Assembly (NCBI GenBank): GCA_963792585.1
Contig: CAWBWI010000003.1
Coordinates: 384,001-448,000 of the forward strand
DNA from: Candidatus Eiseniibacteriota bacterium
GTDB lineage: Bacteria > Eisenbacteria > RBG-16-71-46 > CAIMUX01 > VGJL01
Direction: 5' to 3'
Length of the DNA: 64,000 nt
The notes below the pieces were generated by a model that was not told the DNA's origin, made no database searches, and was given only the letters and a program-made list of their open reading frames with translations. Below are positions 9,831 to 32,374 of this stretch, piece after piece. Both the position numbers and the translations under genes were made by a program. Numbering within the stretch: position 1 is the stretch's first letter; every line of letters starts with the position of its first letter.

Positions 9831-9893
9831 GGGCGGGTGATCCGCCCCTCACGATCCTGCTATTCCCGGGGTACCCCGGGTCTTCGGTTGCTC

Positions 9894-11188: not shown

Positions 11189-11461
11189 ATGGAGCAATCA
11201 CACGAGGCGGATCACGGGTTCTCCTTCCGCCGGACGAAGGACGGCCAGGTCTTCATTCGCCGCGAAGGGCGGATCGTGGTCACCCTCCGTGGCGACGCGG
11301 CCGGGGGCTTTCTTTCTGAGATCGAGGGCGCCTCGATCATCGAACAGCAACAGGTCATGGCGTGTGTTACCGGCAACTACAAGCGGGGGAACGAGCGGCG
11401 GGCGGCGGAACATCCGCGAAATCGGCCGGTGGCGCAACGGCGGCGAAAGGAGGACGCATGA
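11189..11461 (+). CDS. Small hypothetical protein
   Basis: Protein-like sequence (FSFRRTKDGQVFI...TGNYKRGNER); ATGA overlap with the next gene. Confidence 0.65.
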   Translation: MEQSHEADHGFSFRRTKDGQVFIRREGRIVVTLRGDAAGGFLSEIEGASIIEQQQVMACVTGNYKRGNERRAAEHPRNRPVAQRRRKEDA

Positions 11462-14400: not shown

Positions 14401-14811
14401 CACACGAACGCTGACGCCTATGTCGCCTACATGGATCTCCTGATGGCGACGCGTTTCTCCGAGGAGCCCGAGAAGATCCAGAAGTACGAGGAGTTCGTCG
14501 CGCGCTATCCGAACTACCCGGTCGCGACGAAGGCGCTCGCGCAGACATTGAATGCGGCGGCATGGAGGATGGTGACCGCGCCGGACGGCTCGGCCGACCG
14601 GGACCTCCCCAAAGGGCTTCAGCTTGCGAAGCGATCTGTGGAGTTGATCCCCGATCCGGACGCAGTCGACACGCTTGCGGAGGCGTTCCTCGCGAACGGC
14701 CAGCCGGACAAGGCGGCAGACGTTTGCCGGGCCGCACTCAGCAGGAACCCGCAGCACGCGGGACTGCGAGAGAAACTCGAGAGGGCGGAGAAGGCTGCAG
14801 GAGGGCGGTAG
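11458..14811 (+). CDS. Large secreted protein with many DxxGxDxY repeats, HEAT repeats and a C-terminal TPR
   Basis: Signal peptide; repeats such as DLGGDDLY, DHGGNDRY, DLAGSDVY, DSAGEDRY; HEAT units DPSSAVRVAA, DPSPPVRVAAAEAL; TPR-like end. Confidence 0.8.
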   Translation: MSGSRVGICVFGVLFFMLTSSVGAGVVAPYPPSEFFNADPVPLPMRPPGNPLDYAAARIGLDIRGVELPRAYEGGYRLACRFPIIDAVSNRPLYMKEWAEGTTSSIDREHRENKLLAVRRALALLRGLEGSAALVGDAGGHRHSPPGDANVALKAALAPSGITPAYSAAVIDLYTSYLTAAALAASGVSALNVEDRTFFAANPGYFLAPDGERMPDLTGNVDTHFRFVEKARRVRFEEIFAAADTLAVAAQAYVDRTAGWKSSDFLIDPARPFAGVRFGDLTITGVGVDTHAGTALLSIDLGGDDLYPQGAGACPMEGGHVALCIDHGGNDRYDAGNGRYVQGFGFLGAGYLIDLAGSDVYHSGPFSQAAGILGVGTIWDAAGDDSYSGGAFVQGAGMFGLGILLDSAGEDRYECATVGQGGATTLGLGILSDLEGDDRYELGLGRAGDSMGQGPGFGQGGALSFRHLPWTKKLTAYGGVGVLTDAGGNDRYRSGGWCDQGGSYIMSLGVLNDGDGNDHYTSLTGLGSGIHITNAILIDRKGNDIYEGAFRSGGSGGDRSPGFLIDYEGNDVYESKSSCFGTGCKPFCVSLFIDYGGNDTYVSPEPKGPILFNLWDSVGGVWPESEPYLWPYALCLDLGGKDDYRIRNRANDAERHSFGHGLQLDTEWAGGDVIGPIASPLSAYRPQPIPPEVEASRWANEIRALQNPDLFARFQAVGRIVVADSSIIPPLIRTLIASDHRPYNRDLTECLHYFLADGKITDASGPLLAALLHARDPEVRTIFAMDIGNWKLPDCEDALIKAARMDPSSAVRVAAVAALQELASTNAIAPVRALTGRDPSDEVRRVSARFLGRVDGAASLDLLQETLRDDPSPPVRVAAAEALTRLRDPRALDALRAAARSKDVYLQRAAAKGMASLYDVDGIGVLIESLTFPSIDAFVNYGVNVPNAVSAFAGVDMPEDQRYDQQKWRDWFRANREKIDIHTNADAYVAYMDLLMATRFSEEPEKIQKYEEFVARYPNYPVATKALAQTLNAAAWRMVTAPDGSADRDLPKGLQLAKRSVELIPDPDAVDTLAEAFLANGQPDKAADVCRAALSRNPQHAGLREKLERAEKAAGGR

Positions 14812-14862
14812 TCCGGGCGAGCGCATTCCGACTCAGCGCCGGAATGCGCTCCCTCGACGATT

Positions 14863-17220
14863 CTACCGGATCCGCACGAACCGGCCCTCGAAGCGATCAG
14901 AGCCGTCCGAGGCCTCGTAGAAGTAGGTCCCGTTCGCGGCCTCGCCGTCATCGCCCCGGCCGTCCCAGGTCCAACTTGCAATGCCCGCGCCGCCGTCGAT
15001 CCGCGTCGAGAGGATCGTCCGTCCGGCCGCGTCCACGATCCGGATCGAGATCGGACCGCGCAGCGGCCGCTCGAAGGAGATCGTGCAGCTCGTGTGGAAC
15101 GGGTTCGGCGCGCTTCGAGGCGCGAACCCGGGGGTGGAATCTTCCACCCCGGCCGACTCGAGCGAGTAGCGGCGGACTCCCTTCCCGCGCGGACTGCAGA
15201 AGAGATCCGTCGTTGACGAGCCATAGCAGATGTCCCAGATCACCTGGTTCTCGATTCCGGTGTTCATCGCGGCCCAGTTGGTCCCGTCGTCGGTCGACAG
15301 AAAGACGCCGAGGCGGTTGCGTCCCGCGTAGACGTTCGTGGTCCGCGTCCCGAGCAACGACCAGACGACGCTCGTGAGCCCCGAAGCGGTCCAGGTGGCG
15401 CCGTAGTCGGTCGACTTGTACGCGCCGATGTCCGTCCCGCAGAACGCGATCGCGGGATTCGCATCGCGGATCGTGAGCGACGGTTGGTATGCAGTCGTGC
15501 TGAGGCCGGTTGCCGGCGTGAAGTGATCCCCCAGATCGTCGGAGTAGTAGATCTGGTTCGTGATCTGCTCGTAGTTCACGAACAGGCGCGGGCCGTTCAA
15601 CGGATTGCGCCCCATGTTGAAGTCGGGATAGAAACCCGACGTGATCCCCGCGCCGACCTGATTCCAGCTCGTCCCGCCGTCTTCGGATCGCCAGATCTGC
15701 TGGTTGACCGCGCCGCCCGTCCAGACGCGATCGGGATTGGCCGGATCGATCAAGATCCCGCGCATGAACTGCCCCGAGAAGCCCACGAGCTGCCAGCTCT
15801 CACCGTGATCGATCGAGCGGTAGACTCCGGTCGAGGTCGTCATGAACATGCGATCGCCCTGACCGTGTTCGTGGTCCTTCGGGGTGAGCCGGTAGGTGGA
15901 CCATTCGGTCATCCCCGCCGCCTTCATCTCCCACGTCTGCCCCAGGTCCGTGCTGCGCCAGACGCCGCTCTGGTCCGTACCGGCCCACAACTCGCCGCGG
16001 TCGGCGTAGTAGGCGATCGTCCGGACGTAGGCGTTGTTCAGGCCGAGCTGCGAGACGACCCATGCCGCCCCCGGAGTCGTCGAGCGGTAGATGCCACCGT
16101 AGTGGCCGGCGAGGACGCCGGCGGAAGTCGCGCCCGATGCGTAGAAGAAGGCCGCCACGAGTCCGGCGTTGACGTTCGTCCAGGTATCGCCCCCATCGGA
16201 GCTTTCGAAGACCCCCTGGGCAACGAGCGGCGCATAGAAGACGCCGTCCTTTTCGCTCACGTTTGCGTAGCAGGTGCCGGAGAGGACGAGCGTCCAGTGC
16301 GCGCCCCCGTCCGTCGTGCGATAGATGCCCGCGCCCGTCGAGAGGAGGACACGGTCGCCGTTGGCAGGGTCGACCCAGATTCCCCATCCGTCCGTGCCGG
16401 CGGGACCTACCGCGACCCAGGTCGCGCCCGCGTCCTCGCTGCGCCAGCACGGGTTGGTCGATGAGCTCATCGCCATGAACATCCGATTCGGCATGGCAGG
16501 ACTCGCCGCGTAACCTTTCATGAAGGTCGTGCTGATGCCGACCGTGTTCCATGTCACGCCACGGTCGGTCGAGCGGCGCACGCCCTGACTGCTGGCGAGC
16601 CCGGCGATCAGAATGTTGCCGTCGTCCGGCTTGACGCCCACGCCGATGATCTGCGCGGTGAAGGCGATCCGCGTCCAGTGCGCACCCGAGTCGATGGAGC
16701 GGTAGAGCCCGTCGTAGGCTGCCGCATAGAAGACGCCCGCTTCCGAGAGAGAGGCGGCCGCCATGTTCGTGGGAAAGCCCTGCAGGTCGGTGTCGATCCA
16801 GCTAGTTCCGCCGTCGGTGCTGAGCCAGATGCCGCCCGACTCACGCGCAGCGCTCAGCCCGCAAGCGACGAGCACGCGCGAGGCATCTGTGGGGTCGGTA
16901 GCGAACGACTTGACGTTCCCACCCCATGGACCGCGACCGTCCCAGACGAGGTAGCCGCGAGCGGAATCGCCCCCTTCCCGGGCGCCGCCCGTCTGCTCGT
17001 CGAGGGAACCGTCGAACGCGGCATAGCCCGGCGCCGTGAGCGCCTGCGCCGGCATCGGCGTGTCGTCGCACGCGATCCGTACGGCGTCAGCAGCAATGCC
17101 GCTCCCCGTCCATCCGAACAGCGTGAAGAGCGCGAGCGGGCCGGCGCACGCCCAGATGACACTGGGGTTGTGGGCGGTCCGCGATGCGCGGGTGATGATG
17201 TTTGGCCGAATCCGATGCAT
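14863..17220 (-). CDS. Secreted BNR/Asp-box (YCF48/VPS10-like) beta-propeller protein with a C-terminal FlgD-Ig-like domain
   Basis: Repeated S.D.G.TW Asp boxes; C-terminal PNPF...WDGR...G.YF tail. Confidence 0.85.
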   Translation of the reverse strand: MHRIRPNIITRASRTAHNPSVIWACAGPLALFTLFGWTGSGIAADAVRIACDDTPMPAQALTAPGYAAFDGSLDEQTGGAREGGDSARGYLVWDGRGPWGGNVKSFATDPTDASRVLVACGLSAARESGGIWLSTDGGTSWIDTDLQGFPTNMAAASLSEAGVFYAAAYDGLYRSIDSGAHWTRIAFTAQIIGVGVKPDDGNILIAGLASSQGVRRSTDRGVTWNTVGISTTFMKGYAASPAMPNRMFMAMSSSTNPCWRSEDAGATWVAVGPAGTDGWGIWVDPANGDRVLLSTGAGIYRTTDGGAHWTLVLSGTCYANVSEKDGVFYAPLVAQGVFESSDGGDTWTNVNAGLVAAFFYASGATSAGVLAGHYGGIYRSTTPGAAWVVSQLGLNNAYVRTIAYYADRGELWAGTDQSGVWRSTDLGQTWEMKAAGMTEWSTYRLTPKDHEHGQGDRMFMTTSTGVYRSIDHGESWQLVGFSGQFMRGILIDPANPDRVWTGGAVNQQIWRSEDGGTSWNQVGAGITSGFYPDFNMGRNPLNGPRLFVNYEQITNQIYYSDDLGDHFTPATGLSTTAYQPSLTIRDANPAIAFCGTDIGAYKSTDYGATWTASGLTSVVWSLLGTRTTNVYAGRNRLGVFLSTDDGTNWAAMNTGIENQVIWDICYGSSTTDLFCSPRGKGVRRYSLESAGVEDSTPGFAPRSAPNPFHTSCTISFERPLRGPISIRIVDAAGRTILSTRIDGGAGIASWTWDGRGDDGEAANGTYFYEASDGSDRFEGRFVRIR

Positions 17221-17392
17221 CCTGTGCTCCTTTCCTCCGAGATGAGGGATGTCGCACGACATCTTCCTCTTTATGGGGACGGGAGTCGAATAAGGGGCTA
17301 TCGCCGGTTCAAGAAGGTGGAATTGGCGGGAATCGCGACTACAATCGGCCACGGCAAGCAGAGGCGGACGACTGCGATCGAAGGAGCCCGAG

Positions 17393-17809
17393 ATGTCGAA
17401 TCAGGACATGCAAGCGCGGTTGAAGGAGGTGGGGGACGGCGCCCTCGCCGAGAAGATGGGGATCCGGATCGTCGAAGCGAGCGCGGCGCGGGTTGTGGCG
17501 ACGATGCCGGTGGCAGGCAACACGCAGCCGTTCGGCCTGTTGCATGGCGGCGCGTCGGTCACTCTCGCGGAGCAGGCGGGATCGATTGCCGCGAACCTGG
17601 CCGCCGGCTCGGACCGCATCGCCGTCGGGATCGAGGTTTCCGCCTCCCACCTCAAATCGGTGAAGTCCGGCGTCGTGACCGCAGTGGCGACCCCGGTATC
17701 GATCGGCAGGACGCTTGCCACGTATCTGATCGAGATCACGAACGAGGAGGGGAAACGCACATGCATCGCGCGGCTGACGTGCCTCCTACGGGATCGATCG
17801 ACCGCATGA
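17393..17809 (+). CDS. Hotdog-fold thioesterase (PaaI/MenI-like)
   Basis: TQPFGLLHGGASVTLAE motif. Confidence 0.9.
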   Translation: MSNQDMQARLKEVGDGALAEKMGIRIVEASAARVVATMPVAGNTQPFGLLHGGASVTLAEQAGSIAANLAAGSDRIAVGIEVSASHLKSVKSGVVTAVATPVSIGRTLATYLIEITNEEGKRTCIARLTCLLRDRSTA

Positions 17810-17944
17810 GGATCGAGCGTCCGCGACAGCGGCCGGCCACGCCGACCGGGACCCCATACGGGCGCCCGGTGGCGCCCGATTCGCGTGCGTCCGGAAACGA
17901 AGGCGGCGCCTCCATCGGAGGCGGGGCGAGGCGCCGCGCGATCG

Positions 17945-19702
17945 TCAGGGGGCGATGACGATCTTCGAGAAGCCGTCGTTGCCGTGGATCCAGTAGATTC
18001 CCGCGGCAACAGGCCTACCTCGCGCGTCCCTCCCGTCCCACCCATTTCCCGCAAGTGTGCGAATGATCCGCCCCGCGGAATCCAGGATCATCACGGGGCC
18101 AAGTCCGCCGAAGTGAATCGGCTCGCCCGCGACTGCGGGGTTGGGCCATGCGGTCACGCGCGGGATTCGGTCCTCCGCCATGCCATCACCAACCGACGCG
18201 GGATCGAGATGACCGAACCACCCGGTGTGATCGATGCCGAGGTGGTAATACGGCCACGGTGTGAGGGCAGCGTTGAATGTTCCCGGTGCGTCCCAGGCGT
18301 ACACCTGCTGCGAATAGCTCAAGACGATCTCGACGTTCCCGTCCGCGTCGATATCGGCGAGCGCGGGATTCGGGGGCGCCGCGGTTCCCATGTCCGCCGG
18401 CCAGCCCGGCATCAGGGTTCCGTCCGCCTGCAGGACGTAGGTCTTGCTGATCGCGCCGCTGGGACAGCCGAAAGGCGTGAAGCCCGAGCCCGATCCGACG
18501 ACGATGTCGACCCGACCGTCGCCGTTCACGTCACCTAGCACCGGCGAGGAGCCGTCAACCACCGCATTGGTGACGAAAGGCCAACCCGGCATGACGGTTC
18601 CATTCCGACGCCAGGCGTAGACGGTTCCACATTGACCGCAGCTTCCGGCAACGATATCGAGCGCGCCATCCCCATCGATGTCGCCGATGGCCGGAGAGGA
18701 TGAGATATGGGATCCGCTCGCCGGAGCACGGGGGATTGTATAAGGCCATCCCGCCATGTTGCTGCCGTCATAGCGCCAGACATAGATCTTCGCGTCCGTC
18801 TCATAGGTTCCGGTGATGATTTCCAGCGCGCCGTCTCCGTCGAGGTCGGCGAGGGCCGGAGAGGCGATCACCGAGGTGTGCGTCGCGGTGAGCTTCGGCC
18901 AACCCGGGAGCTGAGCGCCGCTATGATCGAACGCATAGACGCCGCCGGTGCTCGTCGCGCCGTAGTCGTACCACGAGCCGATAAAGACCTCGAGGTCGCC
19001 GTCTCCGTCGACGTCGCCTACGGCGGGGGAGCAGCGCTCGACAAAATTGCCGGCCTGCACGGGCCATCCCGAAACCACCGTTCCGTCCGCGTGCCATGCC
19101 TGGACGGTCCCGTCCTGGACCCCGACGATGATCTCGAGTCCCGCGTACGTCGGATCGAGATCGATCAAGGCAGCGGTGGATCGAACATTCGCGCCAACCG
19201 CGATCGGCCAGCCCGGGAGGGGCGTCCCGTTCGCGTGGAGCGCCCAGACCTGGTTGCCGCCGAAGTCACCGACCACGATCTCCGGAAGACCGTCGCCGTT
19301 GATGTCGGCGATCGATGGGGATGCGGCAATGAAGAAGCCCAGGTCGACCGGATATCCGCTCATCAGCGTCCCGTCTTGATGGAACACATAGAGATTGGCC
19401 GCGGACGTCAGGGTCCCGACGGCGATCTCGAGACCCGGATAGGTGGGGTCGAGATCCGCGCAGACGGGCGGGGAGCCTCCACCCTGAACGTTGACGGGCC
19501 AGCCCGGGTGGATCGGATACACAGGGAGAGCGGGCGGAATCGCCGAATTCACGGTCGGCCCGAAATCGGAACCGAGCATCTCGCGAGTCGTTCCCGCGGG
19601 AAGTGAAGACCGGGTCTGGAGCGTAGCGGCTGCGTTTGGCGCCGCGAAGGTCGTTGCGACCGTGGCTGCGATCGCGGTCAACACGAGCAATCGTCGAATC
19701 AT
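17945..19702 (-). CDS. Secreted FG-GAP repeat protein with a short FlgD-like C-terminal domain
   Basis: Repeated SP...D.DGDG.LEI.G and PGWP units; signal peptide from ATG 19702; WDGRD..G...AAGIY tail. Confidence 0.85.
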   Translation of the reverse strand: MIRRLLVLTAIAATVATTFAAPNAAATLQTRSSLPAGTTREMLGSDFGPTVNSAIPPALPVYPIHPGWPVNVQGGGSPPVCADLDPTYPGLEIAVGTLTSAANLYVFHQDGTLMSGYPVDLGFFIAASPSIADINGDGLPEIVVGDFGGNQVWALHANGTPLPGWPIAVGANVRSTAALIDLDPTYAGLEIIVGVQDGTVQAWHADGTVVSGWPVQAGNFVERCSPAVGDVDGDGDLEVFIGSWYDYGATSTGGVYAFDHSGAQLPGWPKLTATHTSVIASPALADLDGDGALEIITGTYETDAKIYVWRYDGSNMAGWPYTIPRAPASGSHISSSPAIGDIDGDGALDIVAGSCGQCGTVYAWRRNGTVMPGWPFVTNAVVDGSSPVLGDVNGDGRVDIVVGSGSGFTPFGCPSGAISKTYVLQADGTLMPGWPADMGTAAPPNPALADIDADGNVEIVLSYSQQVYAWDAPGTFNAALTPWPYYHLGIDHTGWFGHLDPASVGDGMAEDRIPRVTAWPNPAVAGEPIHFGGLGPVMILDSAGRIIRTLAGNGWDGRDARGRPVAAGIYWIHGNDGFSKIVIAP

Positions 19703-19880: not shown

Positions 19881-19909
19881 TTGACGGCCCCCCGGGATTT
19901 CTCCAGAAT
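19881..19909 (+). promoter_or_regulatory. Putative sigma70 promoter for the tRNA-enzyme operon
   Basis: TTGACG (19881-86), 17-nt spacer, CAGAAT (19904-09), about 90 nt upstream of the tRNA. Confidence 0.55.
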
Positions 19910-20001: not shown

Positions 20002-20307
20002 GCGTCCGTAGCTCAATCGGAAAGAGAAGTCCCACATACGACGGCCCGAGCACGGTGACGCGGACTGAGAAGCGAGGATATGTCGGTAATGCCTTCTGAC
20101 GTCCGGGTCTGGGGGCAGGAGGAGAGCCGGAACCTCTCTTCCCGACGGATCCCCGGTATTCCCTTTCCTGCTTCGCCTGCCTTCAGTATCGGCGCCACCT
20201 TTCTGAAGGCACGCATGTCACGTGTGAATGCCTCTCGTCGTGGGAAGCTCAAGAGCACCGGCCTTATAATCCGGAGACTGCGGGTTCGAGCCCCGTCGGA
20301 CGCACCA
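20002..20307 (+). tRNA. tRNA with anticodon UAU (reads AUA) interrupted by a ~229-nt structured insertion in the D-loop
   Basis: Acceptor GCGTCCG (20002-08) pairs 7/7 with CGGACGC (20297-303), then A73 and an encoded CCA. D-stem GCTC (20011-14)/GAGC (20253-56). Anticodon arm CCGGC-CTTATAA-TCCGG, TAT at 20265-67. T-arm GCGGG-TTCGAGC-CCCGT. Confidence 0.85.
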
Positions 20308-20357: not shown

Positions 20358-21422
20358 GTGAAACGACCGTCCACTCGCCAGGAGACTCTGGAGCGGGACG
20401 GCGCGCGGGAGAGAATCCCCGCGGGCGTGGATCCCTCGACGCGTCTCGTCGATCTGTCGCCCTACTACGGACACCTGGAGTGCTTTCAGGCTCTCCGTCC
20501 ACTCCTGGTGAAGACGAATCGCTTCACGTATGCGCCCAGCTACCCGCCGAACGAGCGGATGCAGAACACGTGGCTTTCGATCGCACTGGAAGGAATCGCG
20601 ACGCTTGCCGCGCATCGCACCGGGGAGGTCTGGGAGGATCTCGCGATCGTCGGCACGGGCAACGGCCTCGACGCCGTGGGGATCTCCCGAATCGTCCAGC
20701 CGAGGTCGATCATCGCCTCCGATATCCACCCGATCGCACTACAAGCGGCACGATGGAACATCGCCAACTATGTTGCGGAGGATTGCCGGGTCGCGGTTGT
20801 ACAAAGCGATCTCTTCGATGGATATCCGCCCGGGGCCGCATTCGACCTCATCTATGAGAATCTCCCGAACATCCCGGACGAGAAGGAGCTATTCGACGGG
20901 GTCCGCAGCGCGAGCTGTTTCGCGCCACGCGCCCAGCGGGTCGCCACGACGTTCGACCGGCATCTCCTGACCCTCCACCACGATTTTCTCATCCAAGCGC
21001 ACACTCGTCTCCGCGACTCCGGTTGGATCGTGGGTGTGATCGGAGGACGGATCCCGGTGCAGACGATTCACGAGCTGTTTGCGGACGCCGGGTATCGGTC
21101 CACGGTCGCCGCCTTCGGCCTCAAGATCCAGAGCGAGGGCGATGTGGTTCTGCCCGCCTATGCCGCAGCAGAGCAAGAGACCGGCGTCTCCTTCGTCTAT
21201 TACCATCCGCTCGAGGCGTGTCTTGCGATCGTGCGTGAGCTGTCGCAGCCGGAGGATCTTGCCGCGCGCGCGGAATACGCGGGACTGCTCACGGAACGAC
21301 TTCGGCCCCTCCAGATTCCGTCGACCGAAGCCGTACGCCTCCACGCAGGAGGAGCGGCCGTTTGCCACACGGTCTATGTCATGGCGGCTCAGCGAATCTG
21401 TGGTGGTCCCGCGAATGGGTGA
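20358..21422 (+). CDS. Class I SAM-dependent methyltransferase, PrmC/HemK-like
   Basis: IVGTGNGLDA (motif I), ASDIH, QSDLF, DLIYENLPNIP (NPPY-like position); GGAGGAG RBS and GTG start. Confidence 0.8.
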   Translation: MKRPSTRQETLERDGARERIPAGVDPSTRLVDLSPYYGHLECFQALRPLLVKTNRFTYAPSYPPNERMQNTWLSIALEGIATLAAHRTGEVWEDLAIVGTGNGLDAVGISRIVQPRSIIASDIHPIALQAARWNIANYVAEDCRVAVVQSDLFDGYPPGAAFDLIYENLPNIPDEKELFDGVRSASCFAPRAQRVATTFDRHLLTLHHDFLIQAHTRLRDSGWIVGVIGGRIPVQTIHELFADAGYRSTVAAFGLKIQSEGDVVLPAYAAAEQETGVSFVYYHPLEACLAIVRELSQPEDLAARAEYAGLLTERLRPLQIPSTEAVRLHAGGAAVCHTVYVMAAQRICGGPANG

Positions 21423-22182
21423 AGCCGACTACTTCAGGGAAGCCTCCGTCATCGATGCGATGACGGCGGAGCATCGGATTCTGTGGCGAACCCTCTTCGT
21501 GGCCTGTGGGCCGCACATCCGACCCGGCATGCGGGTTCTGGATTTCGGTTGCGGCAACGGTGGGATGCTCGCCTATCTCATGCTTGGGGACGGGAAGAAG
21601 TGGCCCGGGTGTCACTGCTCCCTTGGGATGGGGATCGATCGTCCCGAGCTGAACGCTGTGCTGGCGATGGCCGGCGACCGGCTTGGCCGGGAGTTGCCCG
21701 TCGTGTTCACTTCCGCTTCTCCCCGCTCGTTCCCTGGCCAATTCGATCTCGCCCTTTCGCACGAGGTCATCTACCTCCTCTCGGACCTCGCCGAGACGTT
21801 CCAAGGGTTGCGCGCCGCGTTGAGGCCGGGCGGCGTGATCGCCCTGGCGACGGGATGCCACAGCGAGAACCTCCTCTATCCAAGATGGACGGAAGCTCTT
21901 GCGCGGGTGGGGGTGTGTGCCCACCCGTACGGGATCCCGGACTACGTTCGGGCGCTCCGCGATGCCGGCTTCGAGGATGTCGGCAGTGCCAGCATGCGGA
22001 TGGAGGTCGATGACTACGAGGAATGGCTAGAGGTCCGGGGAGACCCTGAGCCGAATCCCGAGTGGTTCTCCACGTCCGAGGAAGAGCGGCGGTATTACAC
22101 GGAGTTCGGCAAGACGCTGATCACCGCTCGCCGGGCGTTGGCCGAGGAGCCGTCGACTGTACCCCCGCGGGAAGGGCCGTGA
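21415..22182 (+). CDS. Class I SAM-dependent methyltransferase
   Basis: VLDFGCGNGG, FDLALSHEVIY, LRPGG; overlaps the previous gene by 8 nt. Confidence 0.85.
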   Translation: MGEADYFREASVIDAMTAEHRILWRTLFVACGPHIRPGMRVLDFGCGNGGMLAYLMLGDGKKWPGCHCSLGMGIDRPELNAVLAMAGDRLGRELPVVFTSASPRSFPGQFDLALSHEVIYLLSDLAETFQGLRAALRPGGVIALATGCHSENLLYPRWTEALARVGVCAHPYGIPDYVRALRDAGFEDVGSASMRMEVDDYEEWLEVRGDPEPNPEWFSTSEEERRYYTEFGKTLITARRALAEEPSTVPPREGP

Positions 22183-24245
22183 CCGTCGCGCCCGACTATA
22201 TCCCCGAGACCATCGAGGCCAAGTGGCAACGGTTCTGGGAGGAGCGGGGGACGTTCCATGCGCATGCCTGCGGGGCGAGCAAGTTCTACTGCTACAATCC
22301 CGCGCCCTATGTCACCGGCACCCTTCATATGGGTCATGTCCGCAATTACACCTACGGTGATTTCCTCAGCAAGTTCCGGCGTCTTCACGGAGCGAACGTC
22401 CTCTACACGATCGGCTTCGACGCATTCGGCGTGCCCACAGAGGTGGCGGCCATGCGGAAACGGTTGGACCCGGCCGCCTGGACGGCCGGCTGCATCGGGG
22501 AGATGAAGAAGCAGCTTGTTCGAATGGGGTTTGGATTCGATTGGCGACGCTCCTTCTCCACGGCCGATGCGGACTACTACAAGTGGACCCAGTGGATCTT
22601 CATCGAGATGTTTCGGGAGGGCATCGTCTACGAACGGGAAGCGGAGACGCTCTGGTGTCCGCAGTGCGACATGGCCCTCGCCAAGTCGCTCACGGTCGAC
22701 GGCAGGTGCTTCCTGTGCAACATCGCAGTCGAGACGCGCGTCACAAGCCAGTGGTTCCTTCGCATCTCGCGCTATCTGGACCGTCTCAGGGATGATCTCG
22801 CCGAGGTCAGGGACCTCAACGGCCAGGCGCGTGCGGGACAGGAGAGTCTCCTCGCCTTCCGCAGCCTCTGGGGTGTCTGGTTGATCGAGCCGAAGACCGG
22901 GACCAAGGTTCTCGCCTGCATGGATTCTCCCGATGACTGGTCCAGGCATCTCGTGTTGGCGGTTCACCCTCAGGATTGGCCGACGCGACGGGCGCTCGCG
23001 GGGATCGCCGTCGAGCCGATCTCGGGCAGGTCCTTCGCAGTCGTCGTCGATCCTATGCTCGACTCGCTCTATCTGGATCAACCCGTGCTGAAGATTGTCC
23101 CGCGGGAGGGCGGAGCGCAGGCAATTGAACATGCGCCGGCGGATGGGATCTTCCCGCTCACGGTGAACGAACAGAAGGACTTCTCTGTTTCGCGCCAGCG
23201 ACTCTGGGGAACGCCCATCCCGATGGTCCGGTGTGAGACGTGCGGAGTCGTCCCGGTGGAGGCCGCGGATCTTCCCGTGCGGTTGCCGCGGATCGAAGCC
23301 GATGGCTCCGGACGGCTGCGGCGAACCGAACCCGGGTGGGACGTTCGCGCGTGCCCTTCATGCAAACGGCCGGCAATGCTCGATCCCCAGGTCATGGATT
23401 GCCACTTCGATGCGCTATGGCACTACTGGCGCCCCTGTGTTGGCTCCACGGCGGAGTTTCCTTTCGACTCGGACGAAGCCCGGTATTGGATGCCGGTCGA
23501 CCAGATCCAATTCGGCAGGGACACGATTCCGTTCCTCCTGACCCTGCGGCTGTTCACGAAGTTCCTGAAGGACCGCGGGCTCTCGGATTGCTCGGAGTTC
23601 GCCCGCGAGATGCTTGCGCACGGTCTGATCCTCATGGGCAATCGGAAGATGAGCAAGCACATCGGCAACGTCGTCGATCCGGAGCAAATGATCACCCGTT
23701 TCGGGGCGGACAGTCTTCGGTTCTATGTCCTCGCCAGGAGCGATCCCAGGAGCGATTATAGCTGGTCGGAGGCGAGCCTCGCGCGCTATCACGAGCTCTT
23801 GAAGCACTACTACGAGGATCTGGACCCTGAGACTTCGAGGGAGACAGCGGCGGCGGGAATGGAGGGATCGAAGACGGGATCCGCGGGGAAGTACCTGTCG
23901 ATCTTTCTCACAAAGGTGTTGCGCGAGGTGGAGGTACTGGAGTCGAGCGTTGAAAGTGGACGGTTCGACATCTACGCGCGGGCGGTTGCGCGAATCCTGG
24001 AAGCGCTTCATCTGTTCAAGGAGCGGTACTACACGCAGGCGGGATCGTGGGGGCGGGAAGCGTGGGGGAAGTGCGCGGAGCAGTCCATTCTCTACCTCGC
24101 CCCGATCGCGCCACACATCGCGGAGGAGTGCTGGGAGCGAAGCGGCCGAGCGCCGGGAGTCTTCGCGGGAGTGCGTTGGCCATCAGACGGCCCGATGGTC
24201 GTTCGAGATTTGGTGGAGGAAGCGAAGAGGCGGAGGCAGTCGTGA
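22179..24245 (+). CDS. Divergent leucyl-tRNA synthetase-like class Ia aminoacyl-tRNA synthetase (688 aa)
   Basis: HMGH and KMSKH signatures, GFDAFG, YYKWTQWIF, SRQRLWGTPIP, Zn-knuckle CxxC pairs, LAPIAPHIAEECW; shrunken CP1 region; GTGA overlap. Confidence 0.9.
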   Translation: MTVAPDYIPETIEAKWQRFWEERGTFHAHACGASKFYCYNPAPYVTGTLHMGHVRNYTYGDFLSKFRRLHGANVLYTIGFDAFGVPTEVAAMRKRLDPAAWTAGCIGEMKKQLVRMGFGFDWRRSFSTADADYYKWTQWIFIEMFREGIVYEREAETLWCPQCDMALAKSLTVDGRCFLCNIAVETRVTSQWFLRISRYLDRLRDDLAEVRDLNGQARAGQESLLAFRSLWGVWLIEPKTGTKVLACMDSPDDWSRHLVLAVHPQDWPTRRALAGIAVEPISGRSFAVVVDPMLDSLYLDQPVLKIVPREGGAQAIEHAPADGIFPLTVNEQKDFSVSRQRLWGTPIPMVRCETCGVVPVEAADLPVRLPRIEADGSGRLRRTEPGWDVRACPSCKRPAMLDPQVMDCHFDALWHYWRPCVGSTAEFPFDSDEARYWMPVDQIQFGRDTIPFLLTLRLFTKFLKDRGLSDCSEFAREMLAHGLILMGNRKMSKHIGNVVDPEQMITRFGADSLRFYVLARSDPRSDYSWSEASLARYHELLKHYYEDLDPETSRETAAAGMEGSKTGSAGKYLSIFLTKVLREVEVLESSVESGRFDIYARAVARILEALHLFKERYYTQAGSWGREAWGKCAEQSILYLAPIAPHIAEECWERSGRAPGVFAGVRWPSDGPMVVRDLVEEAKRRRQS

Positions 24246-25306: not shown

Positions 25307-26029
25307 ATGATGAGGAAGGTCGCCCTGCTCCTTGTTCTGAGTTCCATTTTCGGAGGCGGCGCGCTCGCCGCCAATCCCAGCCTGAGTGCGGGAGGTGGCG
25401 GCAGCCCGAACGTCCTCAACTCCGGCCGAGAAGTTATCTGGAGTGAGCCGCCTGACCTCGAAGGTCTGATCGCCTCGTCGGAAGTCATCGGGCAATTCGC
25501 CCTTGAGACGGAAATCGCCAACGACTTCTATATCTCCTGGGATACCTGTATCGGCGGCGCTCGCTGGTGGGGCGGTTATTACAACAACAACGGCTGTAGC
25601 GACATTGGCATCGCGACAAACTGGAACCTCCGATTCTACGATGACGGCGGCTGCGTTCCGTTGACGACTCTTTCCGAGACGGTGGGCGCCTTCGCAAACG
25701 AGACTTTCATTTACTGCCAGGGCGGGTTCTACCCGGTCTTCCAGTACGAAGCCTACACATCATACGTCTACATCACGGCGAACACCCTGTACTGGTTCGG
25801 CGCACAGGCATCCGATCACGCGTTTCCGCCGCAGGTGGGCCGTATCGCCTCCGCATGGGTCGTCGGCTGCGACACGGTGTTCAAGAGTGCCTACTTCTCG
25901 TACCCCGACTGGACGCCCGGCATCGACGTGTTCGGTGTCGCCTTCGATGCCAGCCAGGAGTTCGAGAACTGGTGCATAGTTCCGACCGTGACGACCACGT
26001 GGGGCGCCGTGAAGGGGCTCTACCGGTAG
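25307..26029 (+). CDS. Secreted tandem paralog 1 (ANDF/WWGGY domain, C-terminal TTWGAVKGLYR)
   Basis: AGGAGG RBS, signal peptide, family motifs; single ATA codon at 25976. Confidence 0.9.
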   Translation: MMRKVALLLVLSSIFGGGALAANPSLSAGGGGSPNVLNSGREVIWSEPPDLEGLIASSEVIGQFALETEIANDFYISWDTCIGGARWWGGYYNNNGCSDIGIATNWNLRFYDDGGCVPLTTLSETVGAFANETFIYCQGGFYPVFQYEAYTSYVYITANTLYWFGAQASDHAFPPQVGRIASAWVVGCDTVFKSAYFSYPDWTPGIDVFGVAFDASQEFENWCIVPTVTTTWGAVKGLYR

Positions 26030-26333
26030 GTCCGGCGAATGGGGAGGTCCGCTGTGGCGCAGCGGGCTTCAGGTGGCACACAAAGAGTTTGGTGGCGTTG
26101 GGGCGCTCCCGTCGATGCGGCGGGGGCGCTTCTTGCATCCGGCCGCGGCGGCCCTCGGTGGACTCCATCCCCGGGACGGTAGATAATCGACGGCAACAAT
26201 TCCCGACGGCTCTTGGGTCGGGGGTGCAGGCGGCTCGGCGGTCAAACGAGGACGGGCACCGCACCGTGACGCCCGCCTGGTCCCGCGCGTGATCGTCGTT
26301 GTGTGCTGTGACAAACCACAGGAGGGAGTCCTC

Positions 26334-27047
26334 ATGATGATACAGATCGCCCTTGTCCTGAGTCTGGTCGTTGCCAGCGGAGCGCTTGCCATCAACCCAT
26401 CCCTGAGCGGGGGCGGTGGCGGTACGAATGTTCTGAACTCCGGTCGCGAAGTCGTCTGGAGCGAGCCACCGAACCTCGACGGTTTGATCGGGTCGTCGGA
26501 GGTTATTTGGGAGTTCTATGTCGTGACGGAACTTGCCAACGATTTCTTCCTCACTACGAACCACGGCCTCGACATCGCTCGCTGGTGGGGTGGCTATTTT
26601 TACAACAGCAGTTGCGGCGATGTCGGTGTCGCCACAAATTGGAACCTAACATTCTACGATGATGTCGGTTGCATACCGGAACATGTGCTTTACGAGCGTA
26701 TGGGCGTCGATGCGAACGAGACTTTCGTCTATTGCCAAAGCGACGTCTACCCGATCTTCAGCTACGAGGTCGCCGATCTGAACTTCACAGCTCAGGCGAA
26801 TACCCGATACTGGTTCGTCGCGCAGGCAGCTGACCATACGTTCCCGCCCCAGGTAGGTCGCGTCGCTTCCGCCGGAGTCGTCGGCTGCGAGACCGTCTTC
26901 AGAGGGTCCTACTTCTCGTACAACTACTGGACTCCCGTTATCGATGTGTTCGGCGTGGCGTTTGATGCCAGCCAGGAGTTCGAGGAGTATCACATAGTCC
27001 CTACTGAAAGGACCACGTGGGGCGCCGTGAAGGAGCTCTACCGGTAG
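26334..27047 (+). CDS. Secreted tandem paralog 2 (most divergent copy)
   Basis: Same family; ends TTWGAVKELYR; ATA codons at 26340, 26673 and 26994. Confidence 0.9.
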   Translation: MMIQIALVLSLVVASGALAINPSLSGGGGGTNVLNSGREVVWSEPPNLDGLIGSSEVIWEFYVVTELANDFFLTTNHGLDIARWWGGYFYNSSCGDVGVATNWNLTFYDDVGCIPEHVLYERMGVDANETFVYCQSDVYPIFSYEVADLNFTAQANTRYWFVAQAADHTFPPQVGRVASAGVVGCETVFRGSYFSYNYWTPVIDVFGVAFDASQEFEEYHIVPTERTTWGAVKELYR

Positions 27048-27350
27048 GTCCGGCGAATGGAGAGGTCCGCTGTGGCGCAGCGGGCTTCAGGTGGCACACA
27101 AAGAGTTTGGTGGCGATGAGGCGCTTCCGTCGTTGCGGCGGGGCGCTTCTCACGTCCAGTCGCCACAGGCTTGGGTGGACATCGGCCTCGCAGGAGCAGA
27201 TACTCGTAGGCGGCGAATCCCTGCGGCTCTCGAGCCGGGGGATCCGACGGACTGCTGGTCGAGGGAGCCCGCCACCCACCGACCGTCGGTCCGGCCATGG
27301 ACCTGTTCGTCGTTGAGTCTCGTGACAGCCGAAAGGAGGGAATCCTCGCT

Positions 27351-28079
27351 ATGAGGAAGGTCGCCCTTGTCCTTGTCCTGAGCTGCGTCGCCGGGGGCGG
27401 CGCGCTGGCCGTCAACCCGAGCATCATGGCCGGCGGAGAGGGCACGCAGAACGTCCTAGACTCCGGTCGAGATCCCGTCTGGAGTGAGCCGCCCGATCTA
27501 GAGGGTCTGATCGCTTCGTCGGAAGTTATCGGGCAGGTCGGCCTCGAGACGGAAATCGCAAATGACTTCTACATCGACCATGACGAGTACATCAGTATCG
27601 CCCGCTGGTGGGGCGGATACTACAACAACAACGGCTGCAGTGACATCGGGTACGGCACGAACTGGAATCTGCGCCTCTACGATGACTTGGGCTGTGTTCC
27701 GGGGTCAGTGCTTTCCGAGACTCTAGGGCTGTCGGTGATCGAGGCCTTCGTATACTGCCAGGCTGGCCTCTACCCGGTCTTCGAATACTGGGCATGCGTC
27801 GAGTTCTGGGTCGCGGGGAATACATTGTACTGGTTCGGTGCACAAGCATCCGATCACACGTTCCCACCGCAGGTCGGTCGCGTGGCCTCTGCCGGAGTCG
27901 TCGGCTGCGACTCCGTATTCAAGAGCGCCTACTTCTCGTATCCGGATTGGACGCCCGGTATCGACGTCTTCGGGGTCGCATTCGACGCGAGTCAGGAATT
28001 CGGCAATGGTATCTGCATAGACGGACCTGTCCCTAATCAGCGGACCACGTGGGGCGCCGTGAAGGGGCTCTACCGGTAG
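27351..28079 (+). CDS. Secreted tandem paralog 3
   Basis: Same family; ATA at 28017. Confidence 0.9.
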   Translation: MRKVALVLVLSCVAGGGALAVNPSIMAGGEGTQNVLDSGRDPVWSEPPDLEGLIASSEVIGQVGLETEIANDFYIDHDEYISIARWWGGYYNNNGCSDIGYGTNWNLRLYDDLGCVPGSVLSETLGLSVIEAFVYCQAGLYPVFEYWACVEFWVAGNTLYWFGAQASDHTFPPQVGRVASAGVVGCDSVFKSAYFSYPDWTPGIDVFGVAFDASQEFGNGICIDGPVPNQRTTWGAVKGLYR

Positions 28080-28381
28080 GTCCGGCGAATGGGGAGGTCC
28101 GCTGTGGCGCAGCGGGCTTCAGGTGGCACACAAAGAGTTTGGTGGCGATGAGGCGCTTCCGCCGTTGCGGCGGGGGCGCTTCTTGCGTCCAGCCGCACAG
28201 GCTTCGGTGGACGTCGGCCTCACAGGAGCAGATACTCGTAGGCGGCGAATCAAAGCGGTCACTGAGCCGGGGGATCCGACGGACTGCTGGTCGAAGGAGC
28301 CCGCCTCCCACCAACCGTCGGTCCGGCCATGGATCTGTTCGCCGTTAGTCTCGTGACAGCCGAAAGGAGGGAATCCTCGCC

Positions 28382-29098
28382 ATGAGGAAGGTCGCCCTTG
28401 TCCTTGTCCTGAGCTTCGTCGCCACAGGCGGCGCGCTCGCCATCAACCCGGGCATCATGGCTGGCGGGGGGGGCACGCAGAACGTCCTCAACTCCAGCCG
28501 AGATGTTGTCTGGAGTGAGCCGCCCGACCTCGAAGGTCTGATTGCCTCGTCAGAAGTCATCGGGCAATTGGCTCTCGAGACGGAAATCGCAAACGATTTC
28601 TACCTTCCCTGGGACTACTGGATCTGCGTCGCCCGCTGGTGGGGTGGTTACTACAACAACAACGGCTGCGGCGATGTCGGCATCGCGACGAACTGGAACG
28701 TTCGGTTCTACGATGACGGCGGCTGCGTGCCTCTTACCCTGCTGAACGAGACGCTCGGCGCGTTCGCGAACGAGACCAGCGTCTATTGCCAGGATGGCTT
28801 CTACCCGATCTTTAGGTACGAAGTTGACGTCAGCATGCCGATCACCGGCAACACCCTGTACTGGTTCGGCGCGCAGGCTGCCGACCATGCGTTCCCGCCG
28901 CAGTGCGGCCGCGTTGCCTCCGGCTCCGTCGTCGGTTGCGACACGGTGTTCAAGAGTGCCTACTTCTCGTACTCCGACTGGACGCCCGGCATCGACGTGT
29001 TCGGTGTTGCGTTCGACGCCAGCCAGGAGTTCGTGATCGGGTGCATAGTTCCAACCGTCACGACCACGTGGGGCGCCGTGAAGGGGCTCTACCGGTAG
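28382..29098 (+). CDS. Secreted tandem paralog 4
   Basis: Same family; ATA at 29045. Confidence 0.9.
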   Translation: MRKVALVLVLSFVATGGALAINPGIMAGGGGTQNVLNSSRDVVWSEPPDLEGLIASSEVIGQLALETEIANDFYLPWDYWICVARWWGGYYNNNGCGDVGIATNWNVRFYDDGGCVPLTLLNETLGAFANETSVYCQDGFYPIFRYEVDVSMPITGNTLYWFGAQAADHAFPPQCGRVASGSVVGCDTVFKSAYFSYSDWTPGIDVFGVAFDASQEFVIGCIVPTVTTTWGAVKGLYR

Positions 29099-29406
29099 GT
29101 CCGGCGAATAGAGAGGTCCGCTGTGGCGCAGCGGGCTTCAGGTGGCACATAAAGAGTTTGGTGGCGATGGGGCGCTCCCGTCGATGCGGCGGGGGCGCTT
29201 CCTGCATCCGCCGCGCAGGACGACGTTTGACCCCCCGTCCCAATGAGCGGATACTCATAGGCGGCAGATCCTACCCGGCATGTGTGCCGACTGGATCTGA
29301 CGGTCCTGCGATTGTGGTGAGACCCGCCGCGTGGGCAGCAGCCAGTCCGGTCCGGGACTTGTTCGCACGTGAGTTCCGCAACAAGCGAAAGGAGGGAATC
29401 CTCGCC

Positions 29407-30129
29407 ATGAGGAAGGTCGCCCTTGTCCTTGCGCTGAGTTTCGTCGCCGCAGGCGGTGCACTCGCCGTCAATCCGAGCATCATGGCCGGTGGGGGGGGCA
29501 CGCAGAACGTCCTCAACTCCGGCCGTGACGTGGTCTGGGGTGAGCCGCCCGATCTCGATGGCCTCATCGCCTCGTCAGAAGTCATCGGACAACTCGCTCT
29601 CGAGACGGAAATCGCAAATGACTTCTGGGTTGATCATGACGGCTCCATCGATTGTGCCTGCTGGTGGGGAGGGTACTACAATAACAACGGCTGCGGTGAC
29701 ATCGGTATCGCTACGAACTGGAACCTCCGGTTCTACGATGACGGTGGCTGCGTTCCGCTGTCGGTCCTCGCCGAGACGGTGGGCGCCTTCGCTTACGAGA
29801 CCAGTGTGTACTGTCAGGGTGGGCTCTACCCGGTCTTCCAGTACGAAGCTGGCGTCGACTTCCAGATCACGGGGAACACATTGTACTGGTTCGGCGCGCA
29901 GGCATCCGACCACACGTTTCCGCCGCAGGTAGGCCGTATCGCCTCCGCAGGGGTCGTCGGCTGCGACTCCGTGTTCAAGAGTGCCTACTTCTCGTACCCC
30001 GACTGGACGCCTGGTATCGACGTATTCGGTGTCGCCTTCGATGCGAGTCAGGAGTTTAGGGAATACTGCATACTACCTGTCGGCACGCAGCGGACCACGT
30101 GGGGCGCCGTGAAGGGGCTCTACCGGTAG
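29407..30129 (+). CDS. Secreted tandem paralog 5
   Basis: Same family; ATA at 30070. Confidence 0.9.
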   Translation: MRKVALVLALSFVAAGGALAVNPSIMAGGGGTQNVLNSGRDVVWGEPPDLDGLIASSEVIGQLALETEIANDFWVDHDGSIDCACWWGGYYNNNGCGDIGIATNWNLRFYDDGGCVPLSVLAETVGAFAYETSVYCQGGLYPVFQYEAGVDFQITGNTLYWFGAQASDHTFPPQVGRIASAGVVGCDSVFKSAYFSYPDWTPGIDVFGVAFDASQEFREYCILPVGTQRTTWGAVKGLYR

Positions 30130-30432
30130 GTCCGGCGAATGGGGAGGTCCGCTGTGGCGCAGCGGGCTTCAGGTGGCACACAGAGAGTTTGGTGGCGATG
30201 AGGCGCTTCCGCCGTTGCGGCGGGGGCGCTTCTCACGTCCGGCCGCAGCAGGCTTCGGTGGACATCGGCCTCACAGGAGCAGATACTCGTAGGCGGCGAA
30301 TCCCTGCGGCTCTCGGGCCGGGGGATCCGACGGACTGCTGGTCGAGGAGCCCGCCTCCCACCGACCCTCGGTCCGGCCATGGACCTGCTCGTCGTTGGGT
30401 CTCGTGACAGCCGAAAGGAGGGAATCCTCGCC

Positions 30433-31158
30433 ATGAGGAAGGTCGCCCTTGTCCTTGTCCTGAGCTTCGTCGCCACAGGCGGCGCGCTCGCCATCAACCC
30501 GAGCCTGAGTGCGGGGGGTGGCGGCAGCCCGAACGTCCTCAACTCCGGCCGATACGTCATCTGGAGTGAGCCGCCTGACCTCGAAGGTCTGATCGCCTCG
30601 TCGGAAGTCATCGGGCAATTCGCCCTCGAGACGGAAATCGCCAACGACTTCTACGTCCCCTGGGATACCTGTGTTGGTCTCGCTCGCTGGTGGGGAGGCT
30701 ACTACAATAACGCCGGTTGCGGTGACATCGGTGTCGCTACGAACTGGAACCTCCGATTCTACGATGACGGTGGCTGCGTTCCGTTGTCGATCCTGTCCGA
30801 GACGGTGGGGGTCTTCGCGAACGAGACCTTCATCTACTGCCAGGGCGGGTTCTATCCGGTCTACCAGTACGAAACCGCCGCAGTATACGTCGCCGTCACG
30901 GCGAACACGCTGTACTGGTTCGGCGCGCAGGCATCGGATCACGCGTTTCCGCCGCAGGTGGGCCGTATCGCTTCTGCATCGGTCGTCGGTTGCGACACGG
31001 TGTTCAAGAGTGCCTACTTCTCGTATCCCGACTGGACGCCTGGCATCGACGTGTTCGGTGTCGCCTTCGATGCCAGTCAGGAATTCGAGAACTACAATTG
31101 CGGCATAGTTCCAACTCAGAAGACCACGTGGGGCGCCGTGAAGGGGCTCTACCGGTAG
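30433..31158 (+). CDS. Secreted tandem paralog 6
   Basis: Same family; ATA at 31105. Confidence 0.9.
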   Translation: MRKVALVLVLSFVATGGALAINPSLSAGGGGSPNVLNSGRYVIWSEPPDLEGLIASSEVIGQFALETEIANDFYVPWDTCVGLARWWGGYYNNAGCGDIGVATNWNLRFYDDGGCVPLSILSETVGVFANETFIYCQGGFYPVYQYETAAVYVAVTANTLYWFGAQASDHAFPPQVGRIASASVVGCDTVFKSAYFSYPDWTPGIDVFGVAFDASQEFENYNCGIVPTQKTTWGAVKGLYR

Positions 31159-31462
31159 GTCGGGCGAATGGAGAGGTCCGCTGTGGCGCAGCGGACTTCA
31201 GGTGGCACACAGAGAGTTTGGTGGCGTTGGGGCGTCCCTGTCGTTGTGACGGGGGCGCTTCATACGTCCAGCCGCCACAGGCTTCGTTGGACATCGGCCA
31301 CACAGGAGCAGATACTCGTGGGCGGCGAATCCCTGCGGCTCTCGGGCCGGGGGATCCGACGGACTGCTGGTCGAGGGAGTCCGCCTCCCACCGACCGTCG
31401 GTCCGGCCATGGACCTGCTCGTCGTTGGGTCTCGTGACAGCCGAAAGGAGGGAATCCTCGCC

Positions 31463-32179: not shown

Positions 32180-32374
32180 GTCCGGCGAATAGAGAGGTCC
32201 GCTGTGGCGCGGCGGGCTTCAGGTGGCACAAAGAGACTCGGGTGGCAGGCGAGCGCTTCCGTCATTCCGGCGGGAGCGCTTTCCACATCCGCCCGGCACC
32301 ATCGCGCTCGGTGAAAACTGTGGAGTTGCGTCGTGACATCGTGCGACCCTTGGGCTCGAAGAGGGTGGATTCAC

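Follow-up and report, generated by a model that had tools for sequence, protein, structure and literature searches.

A LeuRS paralog, a giant split tRNA(UAU) and a linked 3'UTR element: a candidate system for mRNA-specific recoding of AUA in an Eiseniibacteriota bacterium

Background

The described systems closest to the one discussed here are the pyrrolysine and selenocysteine routes and a group of duplicated aminoacyl-tRNA synthetases. The system in question is an operon headed by an unusual tRNA gene and containing a leucyl-tRNA synthetase (LeuRS) paralog. It lies in a 64,000-nt stretch of a Candidatus Eiseniibacteriota genome (GCA_963792585.1, contig CAWBWI010000003.1, positions 384,001 to 448,000 of the forward strand), the whole of which is called the window; coordinates without a contig or locus name are window positions. 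In the pyrrolysine system (pylTSBCD), a dedicated tRNA, a synthetase and the amino-acid-making enzymes are likewise encoded in one cluster, an analogy of layout only: PylRS is a class II enzyme paired with a CUA anticodon, whereas the synthetase here is a class Ia, LeuRS-derived enzyme, the codon is a sense codon (AUA, read by a UAU anticodon, or CCA in a related system) and reading appears to be limited to marked mRNAs. In the selenocysteine system (SelC, SelB and SECIS), a structured mRNA element likewise marks the recoded messages and the tRNA is atypical. Here, by contrast, the element is in the 3' untranslated region (3'UTR) and is matched by complementary sequence in the tRNA itself, a dedicated synthetase is present, the codon concerned is one other than UGA, and the tRNA has a short variable arm that is not of the SelC type. 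Also unlike that system, no special elongation factor is encoded in the operon; no search for a further EF-Tu or SelB paralog was made in the rest of the genome.

According to the available text of PMC9437257, the ProRSx/tRNA-ProA pair of Streptomyces likewise consists of a synthetase paralog and a tRNA that evolved together with it and reads the sense codon of another amino acid. ProRSx keeps the amino acid of its parent and has no known target selection, whereas the paralog described here has a rewritten pocket, attached biosynthetic enzymes and identifiable target genes. Archaeal LeuRS-I (whose CP1 is disrupted and whose C-terminal domain diverges) and halobacterial LeuRS2 are duplicated LeuRS enzymes that still bind tRNA-Leu: LeuRS-I forms leucyl-adenylate and LeuRS2 charges Leu weakly. 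No dedicated tRNA or tailoring enzymes are named for either in that text, which lists LeuRS-I, LeuRS2, ProRSx and SelC-linked CysRS and not the deviant LeuRS clade discussed below. Literature searches returned no description of this clade, its tRNAs or such recoding; they left most subscription papers uncovered, and a recent account may exist.

The window operon belongs to a system that is real and conserved; in how it works it resembles a mixture of the pyrrolysine and selenocysteine routes, and it is a member of neither. As far as searched, it seems to be an undescribed way of extending the genetic code. We consider it fairly likely that the system recodes a sense codon, in a programmed and mRNA-specific manner, to a non-standard amino acid derived from S-adenosylmethionine (SAM), addressed by the tRNA itself.

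Operon organization

The operon consists of a tRNA gene at its head, two methyltransferase genes, the LeuRS paralog gene and a gene for a nicotianamine synthase (NAS)-like enzyme:

20002-20307, + strand: 306-nt tRNA-like RNA with encoded CCA, anticodon UAU at 20265-20267
20015-20252, + strand: 238-nt D-loop of this RNA, with ordinary D-loop bases followed by one long stem domain (the insert)
20179-20210, + strand: hairpin in the insert, proposed guide; loop GGCGCCACC (20191-20199), complementary to the invariant motif of the 3'UTR
20358-21422, + strand: class I SAM methyltransferase 1 (MT1); closest solved fold MmtN (Met S-methyltransferase)
21415-22182, + strand: class I SAM methyltransferase 2 (MT2); 44% identical to its ortholog in a second genus
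22179-24245, + strand: LeuRS paralog with a rewritten pocket, reduced CP1 and no C-terminal domain; GTG start, 688 aa
24242-25042, + strand: NAS-family aminocarboxypropyl transferase (Pfam NAS and PDB matches)

The synthetase gene, the NAS gene and the tRNA pattern occur together in the same two of 206 genomes of the phylum, namely the window genome (G000) and a genome of a second genus (G017). The G017 operon has the same gene order, and its proteins are 41-47% identical. The pattern of the tRNA 3' half was absent from 151 and 301 genomes of two other phyla. With one mismatch allowed, it had nine matches in the 206 genomes: eight ordinary tRNA-Asp genes and one fragment, which lies in a tRNA array without a 5' partner.

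LeuRS paralog

The original prediction, made from the letters of the window, was that 22179-24245 encodes a LeuRS paralog with an altered amino acid pocket and no intact editing domain, and this is borne out. The ATP motifs are kept (HMGH at residues 50-53, KMSKH at 490-494), and the three substituted segments, NPAPYVTG (40-47), MDCHFDALWHY (406-416) and QFGRDTIPFLL (444-454), fall opposite the pocket segments of canonical LeuRS in alignments and lack their PYPSG, F..S..Y and H...H motifs. An alignment with Thermus thermophilus LeuRS (1H3N) gives the substitutions M40>P, F41>A, F501>H, S504>A, Y507>H and H545>F; H541 faces a one-residue gap in the paralog, while Y43 and D80 are retained. We take M40, F41, F501, S504, Y507, H541 and H545 of 1H3N to be Leu-pocket residues. 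The interval spanning CP1, expected to be short, is 147 aa (232 in the canonical leuS of the same genome), and the tail past the last helix is 47 aa (98 in that leuS), in keeping with the claimed loss of the C-terminal domain. As had also been claimed, the editing motifs TTRP and GTG are missing, here from all 14 family members; QVNGK is absent from the same 14, and a Pfam scan did not find PF13603 in the 12 database family proteins or in the window protein. The paralog scores 391 bits against NCBIfam leuS_bact (TIGR00396), below the cut-off of 548.4.

A canonical leuS, with PYPS, TTRPDT, GTG and QVNGK, is encoded elsewhere in the genome (contig C1:260076-262571), so the paralog is not the sole leuS. 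NPAPY, D-C-H-x-D-x-x-W-H, QFGRD and KMSKH are invariant in all 13 aligned family sequences (47-89% identity), and HMGH is conserved in them too. Decay of the paralog was considered and rejected because the new motifs are invariant in these sequences. The conserved rewriting of the pocket argues against Leu, and the substrate is probably another residue.

A second LeuRS beside biosynthetic genes, as found on pAgK84 and on a Xenorhabdus plasmid, could also be a self-resistance enzyme similar to AgnB2 (the name we take to belong to pAgK84 leuS), acting against a LeuRS inhibitor made by the cluster. This is barely credible for the window protein, which lacks the tRNA-Leu-binding domain: the enzymes of pAgK84 and Xenorhabdus have retained both the Leu pocket and QVNGK and branch among the canonical enzymes. 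The pAgK84 enzyme, which resembles the paralog in being a second LeuRS in a biosynthetic cluster, also has the C-terminal domain and falls outside the deviant clade in the phylogeny suggested with the original prediction.

Giant tRNA(UAU)

The prediction that the paralog suits an adjacent tRNA with a short variable arm held in part. The two genes are found in the same two of 206 genomes and the variable loop is 4-5 nt, but the tRNA is not adjacent: it heads the operon 1.9 kb upstream and has a D-loop of 238 nt. The original prediction mentioned neither this D-loop nor the AUA-bearing target genes and the 3'UTR element. ARAGORN found no tRNA in the window, and Rfam recognised a tRNA whose acceptor stem was broken; the 5' strand that it lacked is located at 20002-20008, which gives the D-loop its length. 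This strand pairs in full with 20297-20303, and the D-stem is formed by 20011-20014 and 20253-20256. The RNA has A73 and an A15-U48 pair. The G017 tRNA is constructed in the same way: its D-loop is about 183 nt long, its D-stem is compensated and its anticodon stem differs, the anticodon is again UAU, and A73, A15-U48 and an encoded CCA are likewise present. The T-arm of the window tRNA is identical to that of several tRNA-Asp, and the G017 acceptor resembles tRNA-Arg(UCU). Base 37 of a tRNA is related to the codon read, A37 suiting AUA and G37 suiting CCA; the AUA readers have A37 and the CCA reader of Ralstonia (see below) has G37.

TilS is encoded in both operon genomes, and thus ordinary reading of AUA exists in them. 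An ordinary-sized tRNA with anticodon UAU is also encoded in G000 (contig C3:75042-75118) and in none of 40 relatives. A separate tRNA-Sec is present on contig C1 of G000.

Target genes and 3'UTR element

ATA makes up 1317 of the 71356 Ile codons of G000, as counted in 4023 genes called with our own codon model. The operon is followed by an array of seven genes for secreted proteins:

25307-26029, + strand: target gene 1, secreted, TWG tail; ATA at 25976, 3'UTR element at about 26047-26137
26334-27047, + strand: target gene 2; linker ATA at 26994 and two further ATA upstream, element at about 27065-27154
27297-28079, + strand: target gene 3; ATA at 28017, element at about 28097-28186
28382-29098, + strand: target gene 4; ATA at 29045, element at about 29116-29206
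29359-30129, + strand: target gene 5; ATA at 30070, element at about 30147-30237
30379-31158, + strand: target gene 6; ATA at 31105, element at about 31176-31266
31409-32179, + strand: target gene 7; ATA at 32120, element at about 32197-32287

All seven have an ATA 17-20 codons before the stop, with variable neighbouring codons. The corresponding residue sits in a linker ahead of a C-terminal TWG tail or Cys-rich module. Four paralogs of the array genes on contig C6 have ATA at the same linker, whereas none of 11 paralogs elsewhere in the genome has it. The 11 linker-ATA genes have a common 90-nt element, 18-45 nt past the stop. A profile of this element had 14 copies with E-values below 3e-9, the weaker matches being antisense self-matches or noise. 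The gene upstream of each copy has a TWG tail and an ATA (14/14), including three genes outside the training set. In a plain motif count across the genome, an ATA occurs in the last 110 codons of all 13 genes with at least three GTGGCR copies after the stop, compared with 368 of 3673 genes with none; for TWG genes the corresponding figures are 14 of 14 and 7 of 68. The element forms two covarying stems (97% paired; 0/500 shuffles), and GTGGC is invariant. Its longest invariant block, GTGGCGC, comprises a hairpin loop and the base pair that closes it.

A late ATA was found in 2 of 30 TWG genes from five relatives that lack the operon (30 loci of 71 pattern matches). Global reassignment of AUA was rejected: ATA is rare (0.93 per 1000 codons) and is found at ordinary Ile-like sites, TilS is present, and ATA is absent from all four protein-coding genes of the operon.

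The tail, (T/S)WGx(I/V)(K/R)xx(Y/F)R, closes the sequence of some 80 secreted proteins of G000 and of at least 65 of G017, and is probably a sorting signal of the phylum. One array protein was scanned; it had no NCBIfam match and a weak match to Pfam DUF7901. A further paralog (G000 contig C3:658690-659512) has a degenerate 3'UTR element and an ATA at -57, not at the linker; it is a decaying or shifted target.

Proposed guide and comparison systems

The reverse complement of GTGGCGC sits in a 16-nt loop of the window insert. In G017, the complement of the UTR motif is in an unpaired stretch of the insert, and the sequences differ from those of G000. Both TWG genes beside the G017 operon have a linker ATA, in a protein family different from that of the G000 array. 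Sixty-five G017 TWG genes were examined, some of them cut by locus ends, and 64 were counted (one unparsed row was dropped); ten have an ATA in the last 110 codons. CTTCCC lies within 130 nt after the stop, mostly in hairpin loops, in 8 of these 10 genes and in 6 of the 54 others (p 2.5e-5).

A third system was found with another member of the clade as query. Related deviant LeuRS genes are present on 19 Ralstonia megaplasmids; in record CP023017.1 the paralog lies among genes for AurF, TauD, two pyridoxal phosphate (PLP) enzymes, a methyltransferase and GGCT. The cluster ends with an unannotated 187-nt split tRNA(UGG) (17338-17524 of the locus), which is found in the same number of Ralstonia records. 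The next open reading frame (17564-17809 of the locus, 81 aa) uses CCA for 9 of its 11 Pro codons, compared with 16 of 294 in 12 neighbouring genes. Past its stop are three CCCTGG repeats complementary to the Ralstonia tRNA insert, and both the CCA bias and the repeats are kept in two further strains. The peptide looks like a precursor built with a non-standard residue.

The anticodon and the enriched codon thus agree in all three systems. All three UTR motifs are complementary to the insert of the tRNA from the same system, with shuffle rates of 55, 270 and 358 of 5000 (1.1%, 5.4% and 7.2%); of six pairings with a foreign insert, one matched. From the sequence, synthetase and tRNA are a dedicated pair, the giant D-loop looks retained, anticodon and codon agree, and an mRNA element is tied to the codon and is complementary to the tRNA.

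These data bear on two alternatives in which no new residue enters a protein. The RNA may be regulatory, binding its target mRNAs at a rare AUA that acts as a pause or stall site for export or folding while Ile is still inserted. Rare codons in linkers can tune translation, and imperfect anticodon arms and a very abundant RNA would fit; this reading leaves unexplained the dedicated synthetase with its new pocket, the three SAM enzymes and the peptide with nine CCA codons beside a UGG tRNA, and it is very unlikely. Alternatively, the tRNA may be a non-ribosomal carrier for a small-molecule pathway, with an insert that bars it from the ribosome and a codon pattern that is an inherited coincidence. 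Aminoacyl-tRNA-dependent biosynthesis is well known (PMC12945691, in its available text) and the Ralstonia cluster looks biosynthetic, but the window operon has no acceptor enzyme, coincidence would have to account for the anticodon-codon agreement in every system, and the paralogs without the element have no linker ATA. We regard a carrier role as most improbable.

RNA evidence for the insert

RNA data were available as contigs from four metatranscriptomes of a relative, which have no strand or ends and give no proof of absence. The insert is heavily covered in all four runs: a contig over 20039-20261 has a depth of 9860 and another reaches 22843, while most contigs of operon genes have depths of 2-10. 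In run X1, a contig running from the insert into MT1 and MT2 has a mean depth of 266. The insert contig has 8 changes in 223 nt, compared with 119 in 1622 nt of the synthetase gene; of six listed changes, five are unpaired and one keeps a G-U pair. The deep contig continues beyond the insert for roughly 9 nt of the anticodon stem, which is not enough to be counted as bridging. Contigs of three runs end at 20260-20262, the 5' edge of the anticodon loop, which could be due to a priming effect, a blocking modification or cleavage.

Recoding might also be real with the insert being an intron that is removed, or a scaffold for proteins, and with a protein factor reading the 3'UTR element as SelB reads SECIS. 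The insert does bud from the D-loop as one closed stem, the complementarities are short, and a spliced 70-nt tRNA would be lost from these RNA libraries. However, no splice joint skipping the insert was seen in the contigs of the four runs (although contigs cannot show absence), no Rfam intron family matched the tRNA, and by eye no bulge-helix-bulge is common to the three inserts. The operon also has no gene for such a factor, and a factor leaves the cognate guide matches (3/3) unaccounted for. This alternative is distinctly unlikely.

Methyltransferases and NAS-like enzyme

The NAS-like protein has the conserved domain Pfam NAS (PF03059; 45.3 bits, cut-off 27.1) and is most similar among solved structures to thermoNAS (PDB 3FPE; E-value: 1.5e-12). 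NAS enzymes transfer an aminocarboxypropyl group, and the simplest product would hence be 2-aminobutanoate with a methylated hetero-substituent. Such a product could be read by the kept D80 and by a pocket that gains His, Cys and Asp. MmtN (PDB 7VVV) is the closest solved relative of MT1 and its top match in two fold searches with one model. Because of this predicted fold, S-methylation is a possible step of the amino acid synthesis. An S-methylated, positively charged residue is our single best guess, a tentative one that may well be wrong.

MT1 is also similar to HemK/PrmC and RNA methyltransferases, which is in favour of another alternative: AUA is recoded, but to a standard residue other than Ile (deliberate mistranslation), and the methyltransferases and NAS-like enzyme modify the tRNA or the finished protein. 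ProRSx is a precedent (PMC9437257, in its available text), and the contig ends at 20260-20262 could mark a blocking modification of the anticodon loop. Nevertheless, editing has been lost, the pocket is unlike that of any standard synthetase, many different pockets are found in the wider clade, and the Ralstonia cluster has small-molecule amino acid enzymes (AurF, TauD, two PLP enzymes and GGCT); moreover, a standard residue could be encoded by its own codon. We consider deliberate mistranslation unlikely.

MT1 had no match among plasmids. Its distant relatives (P0301-P0305, 28-36% identity) include an Aspergillus protein, and the corresponding Atlas clusters contain many proteobacterial and fungal proteins; these relatives are an uncharacterised MmtN-like family. 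One further feature lies upstream of the operon:

19881-19909, + strand: promoter-like site upstream of the tRNA, weak consensus match (1 site versus 0.3 expected in shuffles)

This match is weak and is not taken as evidence of function. Elsewhere in G000, valS (contig C4:60641-58936) appears to be frameshifted, probably by a sequencing error.

Proposed model

In the proposed model for mRNA-specific recoding, the locus would be a code-expansion unit that is self-contained. The NAS-like enzyme and the two methyltransferases would make a non-standard amino acid from SAM by aminocarboxypropyl transfer and methylations, and these tailoring enzymes could work before or after tRNA charging. The LeuRS paralog, which has a polar pocket and no editing site, would charge the new amino acid onto its own tRNA(UAU). 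The exposed loop of the 238-nt D-loop domain would pair in the cell with the 3'UTR motif of selected mRNAs. This tether would let the giant tRNA outcompete the ordinary lysidine tRNA at the nearby AUA; because it is confined to marked mRNAs, the remaining AUA codons would stay Ile. The weak anticodon arms could, speculatively, make decoding dependent on the tether. The new residue would be placed in the linker before the tail of secreted proteins, where it may be a handle for cleavage, cross-linking or anchoring; a site just ahead of the C-terminal tail suggests, again speculatively, a role in processing or anchoring.

Several points weigh against this model. The synthesis, identity and charging of the amino acid, the tethering and the incorporation are all predictions from the genes. 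MT1 is 16-19% identical to MmtN, below the approximately 30% of Group II MmtN (PMC9135737, in its available text), and the Met-binding residues Glu127, Arg132 and Glu250 could not be mapped. The anticodon arms are imperfect (a C31-U39 mismatch in the window tRNA, C33 in that of G017), and we know of no precedent for a 238-nt D-loop in the ribosomal A site. At 7-9 bp the guides are short, and two of the motifs, those of G017 and Ralstonia, were selected with the inserts already in view; the G000 motif alone was chosen blind, for being the longest invariant block. The G017 motif also matches the window insert (within a paired stem), and the Ralstonia guide is predicted to be half paired. In the RNAalifold prediction, UTR copies 2 and 3 pair with one another, and this pairing shows no covariation. 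In G017, two of the ten late-ATA genes lack the motif, six genes have the motif without ATA, and in one of the eight genes with both (L293) the motif lies behind a terminator-like hairpin. The 14 element genes of G000 are in five loci and partly paralogous, such that p-values overstate the association, and just three independent systems have DNA context. Finally, RNA contigs from a relative can neither reveal a short spliced tRNA nor rank expression reliably.

Wider clade of deviant LeuRS

A protein database search with the paralog gave 12 family proteins at 668-1459 bits, after which the next match falls to 434. In a FastTree phylogeny of 180 sequences, which omitted sequences below 500 aa and five of every six canonical matches from the protein search, all 14 members of the family group on a single long branch (support 1.0). 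This branch falls within a clade of 49 deviant paralogs (support 0.98), which shrinks to 37 (0.86) once pocket columns are removed, and none of the 37 has TTRP, QVNGK or PYPS. The clade includes a radiation of LeuRS paralogs of about 700-790 aa in which the pocket differs per subgroup (for example P0125, P0128, P0134, P0145, P0150 and P0152, together with P0159, P0163, P0164, P0172, P0173 and others). Deviant LeuRS are also found outside the clade (P0151, P0154 and P0261).

Other searches added little. The family motifs were absent from 160 loci kept from two contig scans, which were swamped by canonical LeuRS, and searches of viral contigs gave nothing relevant. A hidden Markov model of the wider clade was unable to separate deviant from canonical LeuRS, and its search also landed on small-genome bacteria. 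The other plasmid LeuRS (from Xenorhabdus, Agrobacterium, Rhizobium, Microbacterium and Nonomuraea, and two cyanobacterial matches) have neither a deviant motif nor the tRNA pattern. The Xenorhabdus bovienii plasmid encodes an asparagine-synthetase-like protein, a methyltransferase and a second LeuRS with a canonical pocket, beside a triceptide cluster of the ribosomally synthesised and post-translationally modified peptide (RiPP) type (locus 7093-19275); we take its genes to be comparable to those for agrocin 84.

Significance

If the model is true, the ribosomal alphabet exceeds 22 amino acids, RNA-RNA pairing can decide, one mRNA at a time, what a sense codon means, and the database sequences of the target proteins are wrong. 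The recoding prediction is a sharp one, as it concerns named residues in named proteins. Standard tRNA finders do not see such tRNAs, and this is why they have been overlooked. The clade is a source of natural synthetase-tRNA pairs with a variety of pockets, and of an mRNA address that can be reprogrammed; the latter is relevant to off-target effects, a problem when sense codons are reassigned in synthetic biology. The balance tips slightly towards a more general reading, that bacteria carry modular code-expansion cassettes for encoded amino acids other than selenocysteine and pyrrolysine. Each would be composed of a LeuRS-derived synthetase with a pocket of its own, amino acid enzymes and a giant tRNA whose D-loop domain pairs with target 3'UTRs and which thereby reassigns a sense codon per message; on this reading, a wide range of amino acids would be represented among the 37 to 49 deviant paralogs.

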